A stretch of 6,333 nucleotides of DNA from Allobaculum fili (GCF_020969955.1 NZ_JAHDSX010000076.1:1-6333); one strand, 5' to 3'; positions 1 to 6,333 are shown, numbered from the stretch's first letter. Numbers and translations: made by a program. The notes: generated by a model not told the origin, from the letters alone.

Positions 1-22
1 AATAGATTTTTAGAAAAAAGTG

Positions 23-43
23 AAAAAACTCGAATCATTCGAG
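23..43 (-). terminator. Weak intrinsic terminator, distal member of a tandem pair (minus strand)
   Basis: CTCGAA(29-34)/TTCGAG(38-43) form a 6-bp stem with a 3-nt loop. On the minus strand it is followed by T6 (A23-A28 on plus) and then a second T-run. The tail TAGAAAAAAG is duplicated exactly at 11-20 and 59-68. Confidence 0.35.
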
Positions 44-61
44 ATTTGACTTGAAGAGTAG

Positions 62-98
62 AAAAAAGACCACATCACTGCTTAACGCTGATGTGGTC
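62..98 (-). terminator. Rho-independent terminator (minus strand)
   Basis: Perfect 10-bp stem GACCACATCA(68-77)/TGATGTGGTC(89-98) with an 11-nt loop. On the minus strand it is followed directly by T6 (A62-A67 on plus). There is no T-run on the plus side. Confidence 0.7.
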
Positions 99-134
99 TG
101 AGAAATCTTAACTTAATGACATTGCTTATCATTC

Positions 135-217
135 GGAAGCAGCCCAGCTTCCAAAAATGCGTTCCTTGCCCAGGACGCATGATCCTCTGCTCATTCGCCC
201 GTGCAGAGGATTTTTTT
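135..217 (+). ncRNA. Candidate small RNA ending at the 182-217 terminator (5' end undefined)
   Basis: Three consecutive stem-loops: GGAAGC(135-140)/GCTTCC(147-152); GCGT.CCT/AGG.ACGC (159-178, one G-U or bulge); and the terminator 182-217. A -10-like TATCAT lies at 127-132 with no convincing -35. No SD-led ORF. The region is antisense to anything reaching the minus-strand terminator at 62-98. Confidence 0.2.
182..217 (+). terminator. Rho-independent terminator (plus strand)
   Basis: Perfect 9-bp stem ATCCTCTGC(182-190)/GCAGAGGAT(203-211) with a 12-nt loop, followed by T7 (211-217). On the minus strand it is preceded, not followed, by the homopolymer run, so it is plus-specific. Confidence 0.75.
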
Positions 218-282
218 ATGGGCACAAAATGCATTGGTCATTTCCGTAAGCTCAATCAGAAAACCGTTTTGGAGGACGGAAA

Positions 283-310
283 TAACGGGACGGTGCGGTG
301 TAACGGGACG
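283..310. repeat. Direct repeat TAACGGGACG x2 (283-292 and 301-310), 8-nt spacer
   Basis: Exact 10-mer read twice. The second copy runs into the 8-bp palindrome GGACGTCC (306-313). Function unknown. Confidence 0.8.
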
Positions 311-464
311 TCCTGGATCGAAAGAAAATGAGGAGGCGGTCGAAAGACTATGTATTCCATTTACGCATAAAAAATCGAAACAGCTTTCATTTCAGAGGCA
401 AATTGCCTTTATTCTCGTGAAGCTTGTTCAAGACGTCAGGGGCGGATAAAAAGTCAAGCGTTAA

Positions 465-494
465 TTGAAATATTCTAAAAATAGACGTTAAGAT
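465..494 (+). promoter_or_regulatory. Possible sigma-A-type promoter (plus)
   Basis: TTGAAA (465-470), an 18-nt spacer, then TAAGAT (489-494), which matches the -10 consensus at 4 of 6 positions. It would start a transcript near nt 501. Confidence 0.25.
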
Positions 495-544
495 AAGACC
501 GTGGAAATCAAAGCAGCAGATTTCCAATAATAATAATTTTTTCA

Positions 545-574
545 ATCATAATTTTTTTTCTTTCTTTTTCTCAA
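545..574 (-). promoter_or_regulatory. Possible sigma-A-type promoter (minus)
   Basis: On the minus strand: TTGAGA (574->569), an 18-nt spacer, then TATGAT (550->545, 5 of 6 to the -10 consensus). It would start a leftward transcript near nt 538 that could run to the terminators at 62-98 and 23-43. Confidence 0.3.
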
Positions 575-580
575 TAATTT

Positions 581-620
581 ACACAGAACACCCGGACCGC
601 CCATCCGGGTGTTTCTGTGT
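581..620 (+). terminator. Very strong hairpin, terminator-like
   Basis: ACACAGAACACCCGGA(581-596)/TCCGGGTGTTTCTGTGT(604-620): 16 bp with one bulged T and loop ccgccca. If only the GC-rich upper stem forms, the 3' arm supplies a UGUUUCUGUGU tail on the plus strand. There is no clean U-tract beyond the stem. Confidence 0.45.
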
Positions 621-636
621 CTGATGAAAAGAAATT

Positions 637-650
637 CTCTTTTAACTCTC
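637..650. repeat. 14-nt exact repeat CTCTTTTAACTCTC, copy 1 (partner at 1305-1318)
   Basis: Identical 14-mers at 637-650 and 1305-1318, each within about 20 nt of a strong terminator hairpin. Confidence 0.85.
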
Positions 651-732
651 ATTTTAGGTAAGGATCGGATACTGATCGTGGTCAGAGAAAGCCTCTGGTC
701 AAAGAAGCTGAATACAATTCAGGACTTCTTAT

Positions 733-744
733 TTCCTTTCTTCT
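733..744. repeat. 12-nt exact polypyrimidine repeat TTCCTTTCTTCT, copy 1 (partner at 1026-1037)
   Basis: Identical 12-mers at 733-744 and 1026-1037. The sequence is low-complexity, so a chance match is more likely than for a mixed sequence. Confidence 0.7.
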
Positions 745-765
745 CTTTTCATAATTTTCAATACC

Positions 766-798
766 GAAAAGTACCGGTTTGCCCGACCGGTACTTTTC
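766..798. terminator. Bidirectional-type terminator hairpin
   Basis: Perfect 13-bp stem GAAAAGTACCGGT(766-778)/ACCGGTACTTTTC(786-798) with loop ttgcccg. The A4/T4 flanks of the GC core give a short U-tract on either strand. Confidence 0.55.
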
Positions 799-928
799 AT
801 ATGCGGATGTATGAGAAACCGGAAGGCCGGATTCTGCGCGAACCGAGATCGCCGATAGAAGAGCTTCTGCCTAACGCCTGCTGTTTGGAAGCTGGGCGGG
901 ACTGGGATCTCTTTTTGCGCGGCATTTT

Positions 929-957
929 TTGTCTGAAAATTCTTTTTTGGTTTTAAT
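929..957 (+). promoter_or_regulatory. Possible sigma-A-type promoter (plus)
   Basis: TTGTCT (929-934), a 17-nt T-rich spacer, then TTTAAT (952-957, 5 of 6 to the -10 consensus). The predicted start is near nt 964. Confidence 0.3.
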
Positions 958-1025
958 TCGGCATAGAGGGTAAGAAATCGTCCGGTTTGAATAACCTGTG
1001 TTCTGGAGGTGCTGTTTCCTGATCG

Positions 1026-1037
1026 TTCCTTTCTTCT
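1026..1037. repeat. 12-nt exact polypyrimidine repeat TTCCTTTCTTCT, copy 2
   Basis: Identical to 733-744. Confidence 0.7.
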
Positions 1038-1304
1038 TTGACTGGACGACGCGGAGTGGATTTCTTCTGTCGCTGAGGCTGTGCACTCCCTGCTTTCTGC
1101 GGTTTCGGAGCGTATGCGATCCCACAAAAACAAGACCGAGGGAAGGCGAAATCCGCTCGTGAAATGACAAATGCTGCACCTTAATACCGTCTTAATAAAA
1201 ATGGGCATTGGAAAGCGTCTGACTTGCGTCAGTTGATATATTGAATTCGGGAAGAGACATAACGTTGGGTCAGCGCAGCGGCTGATCAATCCCTTCCATA
1301 TTTC

Positions 1305-1318
1305 CTCTTTTAACTCTC
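1305..1318. repeat. 14-nt exact repeat CTCTTTTAACTCTC, copy 2
   Basis: Identical to 637-650. It lies in a 37-nt G-free tract (1285-1321) immediately 5' of the terminator at 1326-1362. Confidence 0.85.
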
Positions 1319-1325
1319 TACGTAA

Positions 1326-1362
1326 TTGAAAAAGAAGGGTTGTGGCGGCCCTTCTTTTTCAA
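1326..1362. terminator. Rho-independent terminator, strong on plus and also usable on minus
   Basis: Perfect 14-bp stem TTGAAAAAGAAGGG(1326-1339)/CCCTTCTTTTTCAA(1349-1362). The GC core GAAGGG/CCCTTC is followed by T5 on the plus strand, with a second T6 at 1367-1372. Its A5 5' flank makes it symmetric. Confidence 0.75.
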
Positions 1363-1413
1363 TGCCTTTTTTGAAAAAACGGATGGGGCAGGAGGTTTGC
1401 GGGAGACGACAAA

Positions 1414-1444
1414 TTGAGAGCCCTGTGTGAATGCGTTTTATAAG
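1414..1444 (+). promoter_or_regulatory. Possible promoter of the 1483-2940 gene
   Basis: TTGAGA (1414-1419), a 17-19-nt spacer, then TTTATAAG (1437-1444, containing TATAAG and TTATAA). Confidence 0.35.
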
Positions 1445-1482
1445 CTGTTTCTGTTTAAGCGGTTTTTTGTTACGCTTTGACC

Positions 1483-2940
1483 ATGATGACTCCCAATTCG
1501 CCTAAGAATACAAAAAAGCCTGTTTCTGCGAAGAACACGGGCAAAAACAGAAAAAGAAAACGCAGGCTGACTCGAAAAGGAAAGATTGCACTCACGGTTG
1601 CGGTTTTAGTTATCGTCCTTTGCATCAGCCTTCTCTTTATGCGCCAGCCTTCGGTTGCAGAACGGCTTTCGCTTACCTATCTGGACTCCCTTACCCTCTC
1701 GGATCTCAACTCCAAACCGCAGGAAAGCTATGCGGATAAAACGCGTGTGGGCGACTACACGGTTTACGGTACGTCCCTTGTGTTTTACGATCAGACGTAT
1801 TCTCCTCTGGAAACCGACGGCTATTTTGGACGCAACGTCAAGCTGGTCAATATTAAAACCGGAGAAGAAATTACGACGACCTTTACCGGCGGCGGAGATA
1901 GTGGAATCGACTTGCAGAACCTGCCCGCCGGCGTTTATGAAGTGTATCTGACTAACGGCTATACGTACGCAAGAGCCTACAGCGATGAGGAAATGCACTC
2001 CTCTCCGCTGATTACGATGCGAAACGACAAGAAAGTCTCCAGCGTGCAGGTGGATGCTTCGAAAGACTATCTCGACAAGTTTAGCATCGACACCGATGAA
2101 AACTACATCTTTCTGACGGTAACGGAATCGCTGCCGATTGTGAAAGTGACCGATGTGGTCATCGACCCTTCCGGCTATCTGGTCGATCCAAACGGCATGC
2201 CTCTCGAATGGTACAGTGAGGGCAGCTTTGACGAGAGCGAGCACAGCTGGGAATTCGCTCAGCGTATTGCCAGATATCTCGAAAGCGCCGGGCTTCGCGT
2301 CACGTTCTCCCGCGATAAGGAAGAACTCAAAGGCTACGCAGGAGAAAACTCCCGCGCAGGGATCGGCTACTCTTCGCAGGCAAAAATCTTTTTGTCGCTG
2401 ACGATGAGCGATGCCGAGCAGCCCTATCCATATATGATCAGTTCGCCATTTACCAACGGCGTTCTGGGCAATTCGATTTCCAGCGCGCTTTTGAGCGATG
2501 GAATTTTGCTGAGCACGCCCGTAGTCTCTTCCCAGCTGAATATTGGAAATACGTACGACCAGCTCACTGTGGACGAGGCGTATGAGCTCGAACCGTATTC
2601 GCTGTTTCCGGCACTGCGCGAAACCGGCGGCCGTCTGACGAGCGCCGGCCAGAGCGAGCAGTGGAAAGCCAATGAGATGTTCTCCCAATCGTATGGAATG
2701 AACTCGCTGGTGTTCTGCTACGCGTCCAGTCAGAATGAAGCATCCAGAACGTATTTTCTGGAAAACGAAGATACGCTGGCCCGCGGAATCGCGCAGGGCA
2801 TTCTCAATGCCTGCGGCTATTCGATTACGCTTGACGAAAATTCCATTTCCCATGAGGAGGAAAGCCATTCCCAGACAACCGCTTCGCAAAGTGCGGCGGC
2901 TGCGTCTTCTGACTCGCCCGAAGACACTCCTTCCGAGTAA
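1483..2940 (+). CDS. Single-pass membrane protein with a beta-rich extracytoplasmic domain and a degenerate (probably non-catalytic) Amidase_3-like domain
   Basis: Long ORF (tracked from TTG 1477; ATG at 1483 and 1486; TAA at 2938-2940). It has a K/R-rich N-terminus, then a hydrophobic helix IALTVAVLVIVLCISLLFM (nt 1585-1641). The C-terminal half aligns by eye to the Amidase_3 pattern: VVIDPSGY..DPNG vs IDPGHGG.DPG; E.SWEFAQRIARYLESAGLRVTFSRD vs EkdlnL.iA..l...L...G..V.lTRd; AKIFLSLTMSD vs adlfiSiHaNa; ALRETGG vs vLre; SLVFCYASSQNE vs avLvElgFlsN.e; ARGIAQGI vs A.aia.GI. Acidic, Ser-rich tail. No SD upstream, so the start is uncertain. Confidence 0.85.
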   Translation: MMTPNSPKNTKKPVSAKNTGKNRKRKRRLTRKGKIALTVAVLVIVLCISLLFMRQPSVAERLSLTYLDSLTLSDLNSKPQESYADKTRVGDYTVYGTSLVFYDQTYSPLETDGYFGRNVKLVNIKTGEEITTTFTGGGDSGIDLQNLPAGVYEVYLTNGYTYARAYSDEEMHSSPLITMRNDKKVSSVQVDASKDYLDKFSIDTDENYIFLTVTESLPIVKVTDVVIDPSGYLVDPNGMPLEWYSEGSFDESEHSWEFAQRIARYLESAGLRVTFSRDKEELKGYAGENSRAGIGYSSQAKIFLSLTMSDAEQPYPYMISSPFTNGVLGNSISSALLSDGILLSTPVVSSQLNIGNTYDQLTVDEAYELEPYSLFPALRETGGRLTSAGQSEQWKANEMFSQSYGMNSLVFCYASSQNEASRTYFLENEDTLARGIAQGILNACGYSITLDENSISHEEESHSQTTASQSAAAASSDSPEDTPSE

Positions 2941-3138: not shown

Positions 3139-5049
3139 ATGAAACTGCAGGTATCCAATTTATATAAGTCCTATGGCGCCCAGGACGTTCTGTCCAATGC
3201 AAGTCTGCAGGTCAAAGGCACCGAAAAAATCGGTCTGGTCGGGCGTAACGGATGCGGAAAAACAACGCTCCTCAACATCATCAGCGGAAAAGAAGATTTT
3301 GATCGCGGCGAAAGAATTGTCCCCAACGCGGTCCGGATCGGTTCACTGTCCCAGACCGTCTTTGAAGATAAAAATCAGACCGTTTTAGAAGCGCTCGAAG
3401 ACGTCTTCTTTGAACTGCGCAAAGTCGAAGCGGAACTGGCGCGGCAGGCGGAAGTGCTCGCGGAAGATTCCAGCGAAAAGCAGCTGGAAAAATACGACCG
3501 GCTTCAGACCCGTTTTGAATCGCTGGGCGGCTACGACTACGAACACGAAATGCGCAGCGTCTTCTTCCATTTTGGTTTTGAAGAAAGCGATCTTTCCAAA
3601 AAAATCAATGAGTTTTCTTCCGGTCAGCAGACCCGCATCGCGCTCGTAAAGCTGCTGCTGGAAAAGCCGGACGTTCTGCTGCTCGACGAGCCGACCAACC
3701 ATCTCGATCTGGATTCGATTGAATGGCTCGAAAGCTATATCAGCCGCTATCCAAGCGCCGTCATTCTCGTCAGCCATGACCGTATGTTTCTCGACCAAGT
3801 GTGCGATGAAATTGTCGAAATTGACCGCGGAAAAACGATGCGCTTTCCAGGCAGCTATTCTCACTACGTCAAAGCCAAGGAAGAGTGGATTAAGAAAAAC
3901 CACGACACCTACGTCCGTCAGCAGGAAGAAATTGCCCGTCTGGAAGCTCTGATTGAAAAATTTCGCTACAAGCGATCCAAGGCTGCGTTTGCCCAGTCCA
4001 AAATCAAATATCTCGACCGTATGGAAAAGCTCGACGATACGACCGCGGACAAATCGCGGATCAAAGCGGAGTTTTCCAGCGAACGCAAAGGCGGAAACCG
4101 GGTTCTGGAAGCAGAAGGCCTGACGTTTGGCTATGACCATCCGCTTTCAACGGTGAGCTTTGAACTGTTCCGTCAGAACCGCATCGGCATTGTCGGCCCG
4201 AACGGCATCGGCAAGTCGACCTTGCTAAAAACGCTGATTGGAAAGATCCCGCCTTTAGGCGGTCAGTTTGCGTTCGGCCATCAGATCGATATCGGCTACT
4301 TTGATCAGGAAACTGCCGCCATGCATTCCAGCAAGACCGTAATCGATACGCTCTGGGACGATCAGCCAGAAGCAAGCCAGACGCAGATCCGTTCCGTACT
4401 GGCTGCGTTCCTGTTTACCCAGGATGAGGTGTTCAAGGAAGTGAACGATCTGTCCGGAGGCGAAAAAGTCTGTCTCTCGCTCGCCCGTCTGATGATGAAT
4501 CACGATAACCTTCTGATTCTTGACGAACCGACCAACCATCTCGATATTCCAGCCAAAGAAGCTCTCGAAGCCGCGCTTAAAAACTATGACGGCACGCTGC
4601 TGTTCGTTTCCCACGACCGTATGTTCCTGTCCAAAATGGCCGATAAGGTTCTTGAAATCGGCGAGGACAGTCATCTTTATGACTGCTCGTATACCGAATA
4701 CGCGCAAAAGAAAAAAGAGGGAACGCTCGATTCCCTCAAAACAGCTGAAGTCCCGGCCTCTTCGCGCCGCGGCCGTACGCCGGCTGCAGCGCCCGCTCCC
4801 AAAACGGCTGCGCAGCTGCGTCAGGAGAAAAACACCCTTTCCAATCGCGTGACCAAACTCGAAGCCATGCTGGAAAAAGCCGAAGCTGAGCTGGAAGAGC
4901 TGCGTGAGCTTCGCTACGATCCGGAATATTATCAGGACTATCGCAAGATGGAAGAACTCGATGGCCGGATTGACGATAAGCATAACGAGATTGCGGCCTA
5001 TACGAAGGAATGGGAAGAGAAGATGTCCGCTCTTGAAGAGATGAGCTGA
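3139..5049 (+). CDS. ABC-F family ATPase (two ABC domains, no TMD, Uup/YdiF-like C-terminal coiled coil); probable translation or ribosome-associated factor
   Basis: ATG 3139 is preceded by AGAAAGGAAA with a 4-nt gap. The tracked start at 2986 is a GTG inside the upstream terminator. NBD1: Walker A GRNGCGKTT, signature FSSGQQ, Walker B LLLDEPTNHLD, H-loop VSHDR. Inter-domain linker ...RQQEEIARLEALIEKFRYKRSKAAFAQSKIKYLDRMEKL. NBD2: GPNGIGKST, LSGGEK, LILDEPTNHLD, VSHDR. A P/A-rich spacer precedes a heptad-like acidic/basic tail. TGA at 5047-5049. Confidence 0.93.
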   Translation: MKLQVSNLYKSYGAQDVLSNASLQVKGTEKIGLVGRNGCGKTTLLNIISGKEDFDRGERIVPNAVRIGSLSQTVFEDKNQTVLEALEDVFFELRKVEAELARQAEVLAEDSSEKQLEKYDRLQTRFESLGGYDYEHEMRSVFFHFGFEESDLSKKINEFSSGQQTRIALVKLLLEKPDVLLLDEPTNHLDLDSIEWLESYISRYPSAVILVSHDRMFLDQVCDEIVEIDRGKTMRFPGSYSHYVKAKEEWIKKNHDTYVRQQEEIARLEALIEKFRYKRSKAAFAQSKIKYLDRMEKLDDTTADKSRIKAEFSSERKGGNRVLEAEGLTFGYDHPLSTVSFELFRQNRIGIVGPNGIGKSTLLKTLIGKIPPLGGQFAFGHQIDIGYFDQETAAMHSSKTVIDTLWDDQPEASQTQIRSVLAAFLFTQDEVFKEVNDLSGGEKVCLSLARLMMNHDNLLILDEPTNHLDIPAKEALEAALKNYDGTLLFVSHDRMFLSKMADKVLEIGEDSHLYDCSYTEYAQKKKEGTLDSLKTAEVPASSRRGRTPAAAPAPKTAAQLRQEKNTLSNRVTKLEAMLEKAEAELEELRELRYDPEYYQDYRKMEELDGRIDDKHNEIAAYTKEWEEKMSALEEMS

Positions 5050-5355: not shown

Positions 5356-6111
5356 TTAGGAAATCCAGCCGCCGTCGACGACGAGCACGTCGCCGGAAAC
5401 GTAGGAAGACTGATCGGAAGCGAGGAAGAGCGCTGCGTTGGCGATTTCTTCCGGGGCTCCGGGTTCTGGAGACATTGCCAGCATTTTCGATACTTTTCCA
5501 TAGCCGTCCATGTTCGGCATGCCCATGGAAGTGCTGATTTCCGTGGCGATTCCGCCTGGAGCGATGGCGTTGCAGCGAATGCCGTCTGCCCAGTACATGA
5601 AGGACGTGTTCTTGGTCATGGAAATGAGGGCAGCTTTGGAGGCGCAGTAGATCACGCCGGCTACATTTCGCATGCCGCCGACCGAAGCGACATTGACGAT
5701 GGAGCCTTTGGTTCCTTTTTCCTTGAAGACTCTGACAGCCTTGCGCATGGCGCACATCGGGCCGAATACGTTGACTTTCATGACGTGATCGAATTTTTCA
5801 TCGGTCGCATCGGCTACGCCGGCCATGTCGTCCATGACGCCCGCATTGTTGATCAGAATATCGAAGCCGCCGAACGTTTCCAGACAGAAATCAATCATGG
5901 CGTCATTGTTTTCTGCGACGGATACGTCCGCTGCGAAGATTTCGACTTTTCCTGGCGCGTCGCTCAGCGATTCCTTGAGCGCTTCGAGGCGTTCCTTACG
6001 ACGGGCAACCGCTGCGACATTCGCGCCTTCCTTCACGAAACGTTCGACGATGGCTTTGCCCATGCCGCTCGAGGCACCGGTCACCACCGCGCATTTTCCT
6101 TCTAATAACAT
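5356..6111 (-). CDS. Classical short-chain dehydrogenase/reductase (SDR), FabG-like; substrate unknown
   Basis: 251 aa. Motifs: TGASSGMG (TGxxxGxG cofactor motif), NNAG, Ser (VASVGG) plus YCASK (YxxxK catalytic motif), PGGIAT. The ATG (6111->6109) is preceded by AAGGAGAG (6124->6117) with a 5-nt spacer. TAA at 5358->5356. Confidence 0.93.
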   Translation of the reverse strand: MLLEGKCAVVTGASSGMGKAIVERFVKEGANVAAVARRKERLEALKESLSDAPGKVEIFAADVSVAENNDAMIDFCLETFGGFDILINNAGVMDDMAGVADATDEKFDHVMKVNVFGPMCAMRKAVRVFKEKGTKGSIVNVASVGGMRNVAGVIYCASKAALISMTKNTSFMYWADGIRCNAIAPGGIATEISTSMGMPNMDGYGKVSKMLAMSPEPGAPEEIANAALFLASDQSSYVSGDVLVVDGGWIS

Positions 6112-6181: not shown

Positions 6182-6263
6182 TAAGGCTTGCAGATTCCCC
6201 GAACGAATGTAAGTGTCAAACAATCGACGGGTATACGCGAGACTGAATATTAGATACGCTAAA

Positions 6264-6285
6264 CGGGATCCCTTTCGAGATCCCG
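6264..6285 (-). terminator. Hairpin, possible weak terminator of a gene entering from the right edge
   Basis: CGGGATC(6264-6270)/GATCCCG(6279-6285): 7 bp with an 8-nt loop. The minus strand has only TTT after it. The plus strand has T7 (6294-6300), but 8 nt away from the stem. Confidence 0.3.
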
Positions 6286-6333
6286 CTTGGCGTATTTTTT
6301 ATTCTTCATCGTTTTCTTCATACTTCGGATCCG

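Follow-up and report, generated by a model that had tools for sequence, protein, structure and literature searches.

What does a compact bacterial genome keep in an interval of more than a kilobase that holds no gene? This question is raised by the left-hand part of a 6,333-nt stretch of DNA from Allobaculum fili (NZ_JAHDSX010000076.1:1-6333; the whole stretch is called the window here), for which a preliminary description had reported, between nt 1 and 1476, no credible coding sequence, at least ten strong hairpins and a likely place for an undescribed RNA-based element. The native part of this interval, nt 125–1476, is probably a tandem array of paralogous small RNA (sRNA) genes on the + strand, with RNAs of about 90–150 nt. 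The probability that we attach to this covers the whole reading, in which the RNAs would be multicopy sibling regulators that carry an anti-Shine-Dalgarno-like seed and act in the manner of the LhrC sRNAs of Listeria monocytogenes and the streptococcal csRNAs.

A repeated structured unit in an interval without genes

The absence of a credible coding sequence is borne out by gene callers, which left the interval empty in nearly all conspecific contigs. Pfam searches with eight open reading frames (ORFs) and all six frames of nt 1–1482 gave no credible match; the only one, to Pox_I6_C, was below threshold (E 0.054) and is at chance level. In a set of 5.8 billion proteins, the longest ORF (186 aa, nt 729–1289, minus strand) matched nothing but conspecific sequences at 99% identity. 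No decayed protein or insertion sequence (IS) remnant was found to span the region, and the region is not unique to one genome but has counterparts in others. The structural claims fared similarly. We counted about 11 strong hairpins when imperfect ones are included, the exact short repeats are present (CTCTTTTAACTCTC twice, TATTTCCTTTCTT-like four times), and GC content falls to 0.33–0.40 over about nt 400–800, the AT-rich trough described before. Perfect hairpins with a stem of at least 9 bp number five in nt 1–1476 versus 0.11 (sd 0.40) in composition-matched random sequence, and none occurs in the 3.6 kb of coding sequence downstream; terminator-like sites number 16 in the whole window versus 8.1 ± 3.3 expected. 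The hairpins with U-tracts that had been described on both strands are mostly bidirectional-looking terminators of + strand units. A scan of the window for tRNA and tmRNA genes found nothing, and Rfam 15 gave no match in it at E ≤ 1.

In nhmmer comparisons, conservation within the gap is limited to short segments, one of which is present in several copies at each locus; a repeat unit emerged when these copies were printed in register. The unit consists of (i) a sigma-70-type −10 element, TAnnAT, frequently extended by TGn and placed 7 nt ahead of a 7-bp stem-loop, (ii) the 5′ stem-loop itself, GGAAAUC-AAGCAGCAG-GAUUUCC, (iii) an unpaired, G-poor, CU-rich tract of 32–88 nt centred on UUCCUUUCUU, and (iv) an intrinsic terminator, a GC-rich hairpin followed by a T-run, with a loop that usually contains CGCC(C). 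RNAalifold on raw MAFFT alignments missed the 5′ hairpin owing to indels, and the structure was supplied by hand for a covariance model, R1, built from 25 units. Four units lie in the window, all on the + strand and separated by species-specific spacers. The expectation of an undescribed RNA-based element is supported by a repeated, covarying unit, found by the covariance model and without an Rfam match; short sibling units in an array take the place of a single structured RNA of 1.4 kb.

Covariation, selective conservation and signals of the units

Searches with regular expressions and the covariance model recovered 43 distinct units at about 14 loci. TTCCTTTCTT is present with at most one mismatch in 39 of the 43, and CGCC in 29 of the 43 terminator loops; the unpaired linker has a median length of 43 nt and is 72% pyrimidine and 4% G. 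The commonest 5′ loop, AAGCAGCA(G), is exact in 13 units, most others being one base or one indel away. In a model-based alignment (A4), 98.2% of paired cells are complementary versus 82.3% in shuffles, and slid controls reach at most 69%. Compensatory changes occur at 14 of 17 pairs, and the covariation score of 0.481, versus 0.162, was reached by none of 500 shuffles. When units are folded as single sequences, two hairpins form and the tract between them stays unpaired (z-scores −4 to −6.5).

Identity between related species is 92–95% in units, 76–83% in promoters and 56–65% in spacers, a gradient from which the units appear clearly to be under purifying selection. Units C, D and Z follow one another in the same order in A. 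fili and A. mucilyticum. Unit Z is 77% identical over 150 nt to its A. mucilyticum counterpart versus 67% for the adjoining coding sequence, and in eight lineages its orthologues immediately precede the amidase-like gene, with TATTTCCTCTTTTA invariant, the terminator loop conserved and compensatory changes at 6 of 16 terminator pairs. These comparisons bear on the reading of the interval as decayed coding sequence or neutral junk, with the hairpins as leftover terminators. About half of the native region (nt 223–440 and 800–1232) is unconserved spacer that matches nothing, and the 186-aa ORF was called once by a gene caller (L016). Against this stand the lack of protein similarity in any of the six frames and of homologues beyond the species, and units that covary and are clearly selected; for the units the reading is largely refuted, and we regard it as extremely unlikely overall.

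Aligned upstream regions point to a promoter for each unit. In most of 39 such regions TAnnAT ends 7 nt before the hairpin and a ATAAAGAAA...GAGCGTT element lies further upstream; in many units ATAAAGAAA-like half-sites are directly repeated at 11-bp spacing ahead of GAGCGTT. A total of 253 kb contains 39 copies of the repeat TAAAGA-N5-TAAAGA with no more than one mismatch in either half, and 11 of these copies lie 66–79 nt upstream of a unit on the same strand versus 0.39 expected, an enrichment of about 28-fold. Direct repeats of this geometry are typical of sites for OmpR-family response regulators. A side observation concerns the neighbouring NlpC/P60 hydrolase gene, whose promoters share a CTTAAGAAA...GGTCATTTTGCTTCC motif (L009 about 1150–1266, L024, L026, L027, L017 and L019); its TTAAGAAA half-site resembles those of the units, which hints at a common regulator.

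In 11 loci oriented on the amidase-like gene, all matches at E ≤ 1e-4 lie on that gene's strand. A further reading is a type I toxin-antitoxin or small-peptide array, in which each unit would encode a short peptide and, from the opposite strand, an antisense RNA. Tandem hairpin repeats of about 100–150 nt are typical of Ibs/Sib-like loci, and in some copies the purine-rich tract of the minus strand could serve as a Shine-Dalgarno (SD) sequence followed by ATG, as in a 34-aa ORF opposite L009 3263 and MIEKIIIIGNLLL opposite window nt 503–545. Many copies, however, have no start codon, the frame through the hairpin varies (GNLLLDF versus EICCLIS) and the stops shift; with no conserved peptide on either strand and no Pfam match in any frame, this reading is hardly credible.

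The position of unit Z raises the question of whether the units are instead cis-acting leaders or attenuators, unit Z being the leader of the amidase-like gene and the upstream units duplicated, possibly inert copies. Unit Z always lies directly upstream of that gene and on its strand, shares the promoter architecture of the other units, and ends its terminator about 25–45 nt before the ATG in four lineages; the gene has no SD sequence. But the gene carries a conserved extended −10-like element of its own: TGnTAnnCT (CGn in two of seven), exactly 6 nt and then the ATG are found in seven lineages (the window and L017, L018, L020, L024, L026, L027 and L029). Since an SD sequence is lacking, its mRNA is probably leaderless, as judged from this arrangement. 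Nor do the units behave as leaders elsewhere: canonical units precede other units, most units being followed by another unit and not by an ORF, and at L033/L041 and L048 the units and the amidase-like gene are on opposite strands. An insertion of 80–250 nt separates the Z terminator from the gene in the window, L024 and L029, and no conserved alternative antiterminator pairing was found. A riboswitch or attenuator would be expected to lie consistently in a 5′ untranslated region (UTR) on the strand of its gene, with an expression platform; here only unit Z is consistently gene-adjacent. We therefore consider the leader reading unlikely. The units instead combine, in sequence-level tests, the features of trans-encoded sRNA genes: a predicted promoter and terminator of their own, no conserved ORF, and conservation that does not depend on the flanking genes.

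Table 1 Features of the window (positions in nt from its first letter)
Feature	Position	Strand	Details
Right end of 1646-bp insertion sequence	1–124		outside the RNA array
18-bp terminal inverted repeat CTTAACTTAATGACATTG	107–124		right repeat of the insertion sequence
Target-site duplication CTTATCATTC	125–134		within the 3′ part of unit B
Unit B, 3′ part	125–222	+	long variant, split by insertion sequence
R1 match, weak	132–216	+	13.6 bits, E 0.039
Unit B hairpins	135–152; 157–180		GCCC in loop; loop UUGCCCA
Unit B predicted terminator	181–212		loop AUUCGCCCG; U-run 213–219
Spacer B–C	223–443		no conserved element detected; no R1 match
Unit C predicted promoter region	444–500	+	upstream box remnant GGATAAAAAGTCAAGCGTTAA 444–464
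Unit C predicted promoter elements	465–470; 489–494		−35 TTGAAA; −10 TAAGAT; predicted start ~501 (promoter scan)
Unit C, canonical sibling	501–620	+	5′ stem-loop 503–525, GGAAAUC-AAAGCAGCA-GAUUUCC
R1 match	501–618	+	67.6 bits, E 5e-10 (3.7e-12 when 1600 nt searched)
Unit C U/C-rich unpaired tract	~526–580
Unit C predicted terminator hairpin	581–620		loop CCGCCCA
Unit D, divergent sibling	701–800	+	5′ stem-loop 702–730
R1 match	701–800	+	41.7 bits, E 3e-5
Unit D CU tract UAUUUCCUUUCUUCUCUUUUCAU	~731–752
Unit D predicted terminator	766–798		13-bp perfect stem, loop UUGCCCG
Spacer D–Z	801–1233		species-specific; CU-rich remnant 1023–1040; only a 6-bit R1 match at 971–1063
Unit Z, last sibling	1234–1373	+	position most conserved
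Unit Z predicted extended −10 TGATATATT	1234–1242		predicted start ~1249
Unit Z helices	1250–1254 with 1293–1297; 1268–1287		outer helix; hairpin
R1 match	1266–1362	+	26 bits, E 0.025 (1.9e-4 over 1.6 kb)
Unit Z invariant UAUUUCCUCUUUUA	1299–1312
Unit Z predicted terminator	1322–1365		15-bp perfect stem extended by fold; U-run 1367–1372
Extended −10-like element TGTTACGCT of amidase-like gene	1468–1476	+	6 nt, then ATG 1483; right border of array
Amidase-like membrane protein	1483–2940	+	first gene right of gap
ABC-F	3139–5049
Short-chain dehydrogenase	beyond ABC-F	opposite
Perfect hairpins	67–99, 182–211, 587–613, 766–798, 1325–1363
Imperfect hairpins	29–43, 135–152, 157–180, 503–525, 702–730, 1268–1287

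The four copies in the window differ in their state of preservation (Table 1). Units C and D fold with z-scores of −6.5, with the tract unpaired, and −5.7, and unit D is collinear with nt 5650–5751 of the A. mucilyticum locus (L017), where D and Z are only about 85–115 nt apart. Unit B (z-score −4.1) is intact in the conspecific contig L009 (3263–3410; 59.6 bits with R1). Comparison of the L003 and L009 junctions places the IS cut in unit B immediately 3′ of its CU tract, and the severed promoter, 5′ hairpin and CU tract are found beyond the IS (L003 17551–17680; 53.8 bits). Neither spacer has nhmmer or blastn similarity outside the species. Within spacer D–Z, nt 884–897 is the exact reverse complement of nt 142–155 in unit B over 14 nt (GCCCAGCTTCCAAA/TTTGGAAGCTGGGC), and chance alone would give about 0.004 such matches in 1.5 kb. 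The spacer copy probably derives from a piece of a former unit that became inverted, or is other rearrangement debris; the complementarity could allow RNA–RNA pairing.

Distribution of the array and its insertion sequences

Homologues of the amidase-like protein led to related genomes. A gene-free gap of 1.3–3.5 kb with 5–7 units lies between the NlpC/P60 hydrolase and amidase-like genes in at least six lineages of the Allobaculum clade; upstream of the amidase-like gene it measures 2.58 kb in L019, 3.5 kb in L024, 2.26 kb in L026, 1.29 kb in L027 and 2.35 kb in L029. The family spans Allobaculum, Ileibacterium valens (L023, at least one unit) and other Erysipelotrichaceae. A strict pattern scan of Joint Genome Institute (JGI) metagenomes returned 23 stretches, and the matches confirmed by the covariance model come only from animal-gut co-assemblies with the NlpC/P60–amidase-like locus, on one contig per genome. 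Single pattern matches in environmental contigs (Ga0...) are not confirmed by the model and were discarded as chance. The phages, plasmids and viral contigs that we searched contained no unit match. Additional units lie in separate nearby intergenic regions at L029 (23–913, three of them upstream of a metallophosphoesterase gene) and L018 (176–1462), so that the gap is not strictly the only place where the family occurs.

Such extra copies, the presence of several hairpin copies per genome in sometimes inverted orientation, and the landing of IS elements in the arrays of both cultured species would suit selfish repeats of the MITE (miniature inverted-repeat transposable element), REP (repetitive extragenic palindromic) or BOX type that have no RNA function and accumulate in a permissive intergenic region. 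The units, however, have no terminal inverted repeats or target duplications; what the copies share is a promoter, start-site geometry and terminator, not transposition signals. Their positions are orthologous between species, their conservation far exceeds that of the spacers, and their metagenome matches cluster on one contig per genome, with none on phages or plasmids. Selfish repeats are thus a very unlikely explanation.

The window itself is bracketed by foreign DNA. Conspecific contigs, reached through the short-chain dehydrogenase (SDR) and amidase-like proteins, include 14 that are more than 99.7% identical to the window, most of which align only from nt 125 and none past nt 6208; both window ends are therefore IS ends carried by this genome only. 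In the public CP078088.1 locus (L003; assembly GCA_022701175.1, 2.73 Mb), which aligns to the window over its full length, the left IS has perfect 18-bp inverted repeats, a 10-bp target duplication relative to the IS-free contig L009, and a transposase with the Pfam domain DDE_Tnp_1 (transposase genes at L003 16156–17465), and the empty site is present in the 14 conspecific contigs. Nucleotides 1–124, with the hairpins at 29–43 and 67–99, are thus the end of an insertion sequence and not native, a correction to the description of nt 1–1476 as one structured stretch. At the other end, nt 6209–6333 abut an IS66-family element in CP078088.1 (TnpB_IS66 and DDE_Tnp_IS66 ORFs; L003 7494–9812), so that two IS copies flank the window.

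Conspecifics without the IS have, in this order, the NlpC/P60 hydrolase gene, a gene-poor gap of about 2.5 kb that reaches past the window's left edge, and the genes for the amidase-like membrane protein, ABC-F and SDR; the region studied consists of the IS end and the 1.35 kb on the right-hand side of this gap. The array of A. mucilyticum (L017; CP078089.1 is A. mucilyticum strain 128) is also broken by an IS, with a 573-aa transposase ORF at L017 3641–5362, and both cultured species thus have insertions in their arrays. This ORF had been a candidate for a gene missing from the window at the syntenic place, and was rejected as an IS transposase without similarity to the window.

Two further observations concern the gap and its public sequences. 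The alignment of L003 to the window has 21 gap openings and no mismatch, and the gene calls break up many genes of L003 (three pieces for ABC-F, two for the amidase-like gene), which looks like homopolymer errors of that assembly. The same gene-free gap contains, between two sRNA units, a skipping-rope RNA (RF02924; L009 2779–2863, +; E 3e-7, 42.8 bits versus a gathering score of 36.7). In IS-free conspecifics the place equivalent to window nt 1 lies about 330 nt to its right. The function of this motif is unknown, and an association with particular nearby proteins has been reported (PMC5737381). Just downstream of it is the sole ORF called in the native gap (L009 2938–3198, +), of 86 aa and odd composition, without a Pfam match and of doubtful coding status.

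Relation to known sRNA families and proposed action

Four LhrC copies cluster in one intergenic region. The LhrC RNAs are G-poor, with a 5′ stem-loop, a single-stranded CU-rich stretch, a terminator, and C-rich motifs in the loops and the stretch; they share an upstream promoter element, depend on the two-component response regulator LisR, are linked to the cell envelope and pair at ribosome-binding sites (PMC4132741). LhrC1-5 and the Allobaculum units are alike in being several near-identical genes, in the latter case putative ones, of the same architecture. They differ in their motifs: LhrC has three UCCC motifs (loop A, stretch and terminator loop), whereas the units have UUCC in the stretch (UUCCUUUCUU), CGCC(C) in the terminator loop and a 5′ loop (AAGCAGCAG) that is not C-rich. 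The Allobaculum arrays are also larger (5–7 units plus decayed copies), are fixed between two peptidoglycan-hydrolase genes and belong to another phylogenetic group, the Erysipelotrichaceae. The Rfam model of LhrC gave no match at E ≤ 10, and in the full arrays of L019 and L009 the units drew only noise at that threshold, with VrrA, FsrA and RybB at 20–24 bits versus gathering scores of 40–80.

The streptococcal csRNAs are highly similar sRNAs of 51–202 nt in which, typically, two stem-loops flank an unpaired region complementary to the SD sequence, and their promoters carry a hexamer direct repeat TTTAAG-N5-TTTAAG of 11-bp periodicity that is bound by a response regulator, the CiaR box (N)TTAAG-N5-TTTAAG lying 10 nt upstream of the −10 element (PMC3091779). 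In the units, likewise, two stem-loops flank the unpaired tract UUCCUUUCUU, which is complementary to ribosome-binding sites of the AAGAAAGGAA type, and the predicted promoters of many units are preceded by an 11-bp-spaced direct repeat. That repeat, however, is TAAAGA-N5-TAAAGA at about −67 and not 10 nt upstream of the −10; a search of 31 unit promoters for the CiaR box with up to two mismatches gave three loose matches (−50, −80 and −37), none at the CiaR position, with a single one rated as marginal. CAU often lies 3′ of the CU tract, the wrong order for a combined anti-SD/anti-AUG seed, and the units have no Rfam match. Bacillales sRNAs of the RsaE/RoxS type, in which unpaired C-rich motifs pair with G-rich ribosome-binding sites (PMC4132741), resemble the units as terminator-ended sRNAs of about 100 nt; they differ in being single-copy genes with UCCC/CCCC motifs and another structure, and here too the units lack an Rfam match. 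With no Rfam match, no UCCC triad and no CiaR box, the units would be similar in working to LhrC and the csRNAs and a member of neither. On sequence comparison they are a new family of the multicopy sibling sRNA kind, absent from Rfam.

LhrC and the csRNAs block translation by pairing at ribosome-binding sites and are driven by two-component systems (PMC4132741, PMC3091779). For the units, the sequences show a repeat family with its structure, covariation and selective conservation, its promoter and terminator signals and a conserved locus; transcription, base pairing in trans, a regulator and targets we infer along similar lines. Each unit would be its own transcription unit starting at the foot of the 5′ stem-loop, which may protect the 5′ end, bind a protein or both. 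The CU tract, and possibly the C-rich loops, would serve as seeds for purine-rich, AAGAAAGGAA-like ribosome-binding regions of target mRNAs, and the duplex would keep translation from being initiated. A shared TAAAGA-N5-TAAAGA at about −67, a kind of site bound by OmpR-family response regulators, would bring about joint induction of the siblings. A link to cell-envelope physiology is suggested, though no more than that, by the fixed place of the array, which has a peptidoglycan-hydrolase gene on either side. Duplex prediction on the initiation regions of a few neighbouring genes pairs the CU tract with their SD regions. An apparent pairing of the GCCC loops with the NlpC/P60 5′ UTR in A. fili was rejected, as it is not conserved in other species.

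The same RNAs could be genuine siblings that act by titrating a protein or as sponges, and not at ribosome-binding sites. The 5′ hairpin and its loop (AAGCAGCAG) are conserved in sequence far beyond what pairing needs, many tandem copies suit titration, duplex prediction gave no specific mRNA target, and the exact complementarity between nt 142–155 and 884–897 could reflect sponging between RNAs. Known protein-binding motifs are absent, however (there is, for example, no GGA in the loops for CsrA), nt 884–897 lies in non-conserved spacer, and G-poor, CU-rich tracts with C-rich loops are a hallmark of base-pairing sRNAs in low-GC Gram-positives (PMC4132741). We give titration or sponging a small but appreciable chance of being right.

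Several points weigh against the reading of the units as sibling regulators that pair with ribosome-binding sites. Their promoters and terminators are sequence predictions only, and several terminators look bidirectional, so that the strand call rests on promoters, U-runs and the asymmetry of the covariance-model matches. Because the A4 alignment was fitted to the model, its paired fraction is inflated; the covariation lies mostly in the terminator helix, as it would in any terminator, and the 5′ helix is mostly invariant, with double changes at four of seven pairs. The restriction to one locus was judged from metagenome contigs only. The predicted duplexes are non-specific, in that an SD sequence suffices for a gene to pair with the CU tract, and the neighbouring amidase-like mRNA, which lacks one, ranks low as a partner. 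Finally, the conserved 5′ loop and the CGCCC loop are, by their sequence, equally compatible with a protein-binding or sponge role.

A bolder variant would see in the array a birth-and-death "nursery" of mimics of the 16S rRNA tail that switch the cell from translation that depends on SD sequences to leaderless translation. Only two positions would distinguish the invariant tract UUUCCUUUCU from the 3′ end of Firmicute 16S rRNA, CCUCCUUUCU. If this were true, siblings co-induced by an envelope-sensing response regulator would compete genome-wide with ribosomes for SD sequences, and leaderless mRNAs, including that of the adjoining amidase-like gene, would be spared, a dosage-tunable switch placed beside its beneficiary. 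We rate this variant as decidedly unlikely.

Allobaculum species are gut commensals, some of which degrade mucin and are linked to inflammation, and we found no description of post-transcriptional regulation in the genus in the literature. On the reading of the units as sibling sRNAs, the locus yields an sRNA family with a covariance model, predicted promoter and terminator coordinates and a candidate regulator box. Its intact, divergent and dead copies stand side by side and would make it a system for the birth, divergence and decay of sibling sRNAs. The array may account for why a compact genome keeps an "empty" gap of 1.3–3.5 kb, and it would offer a testable way into envelope-stress signalling in the Erysipelotrichaceae.

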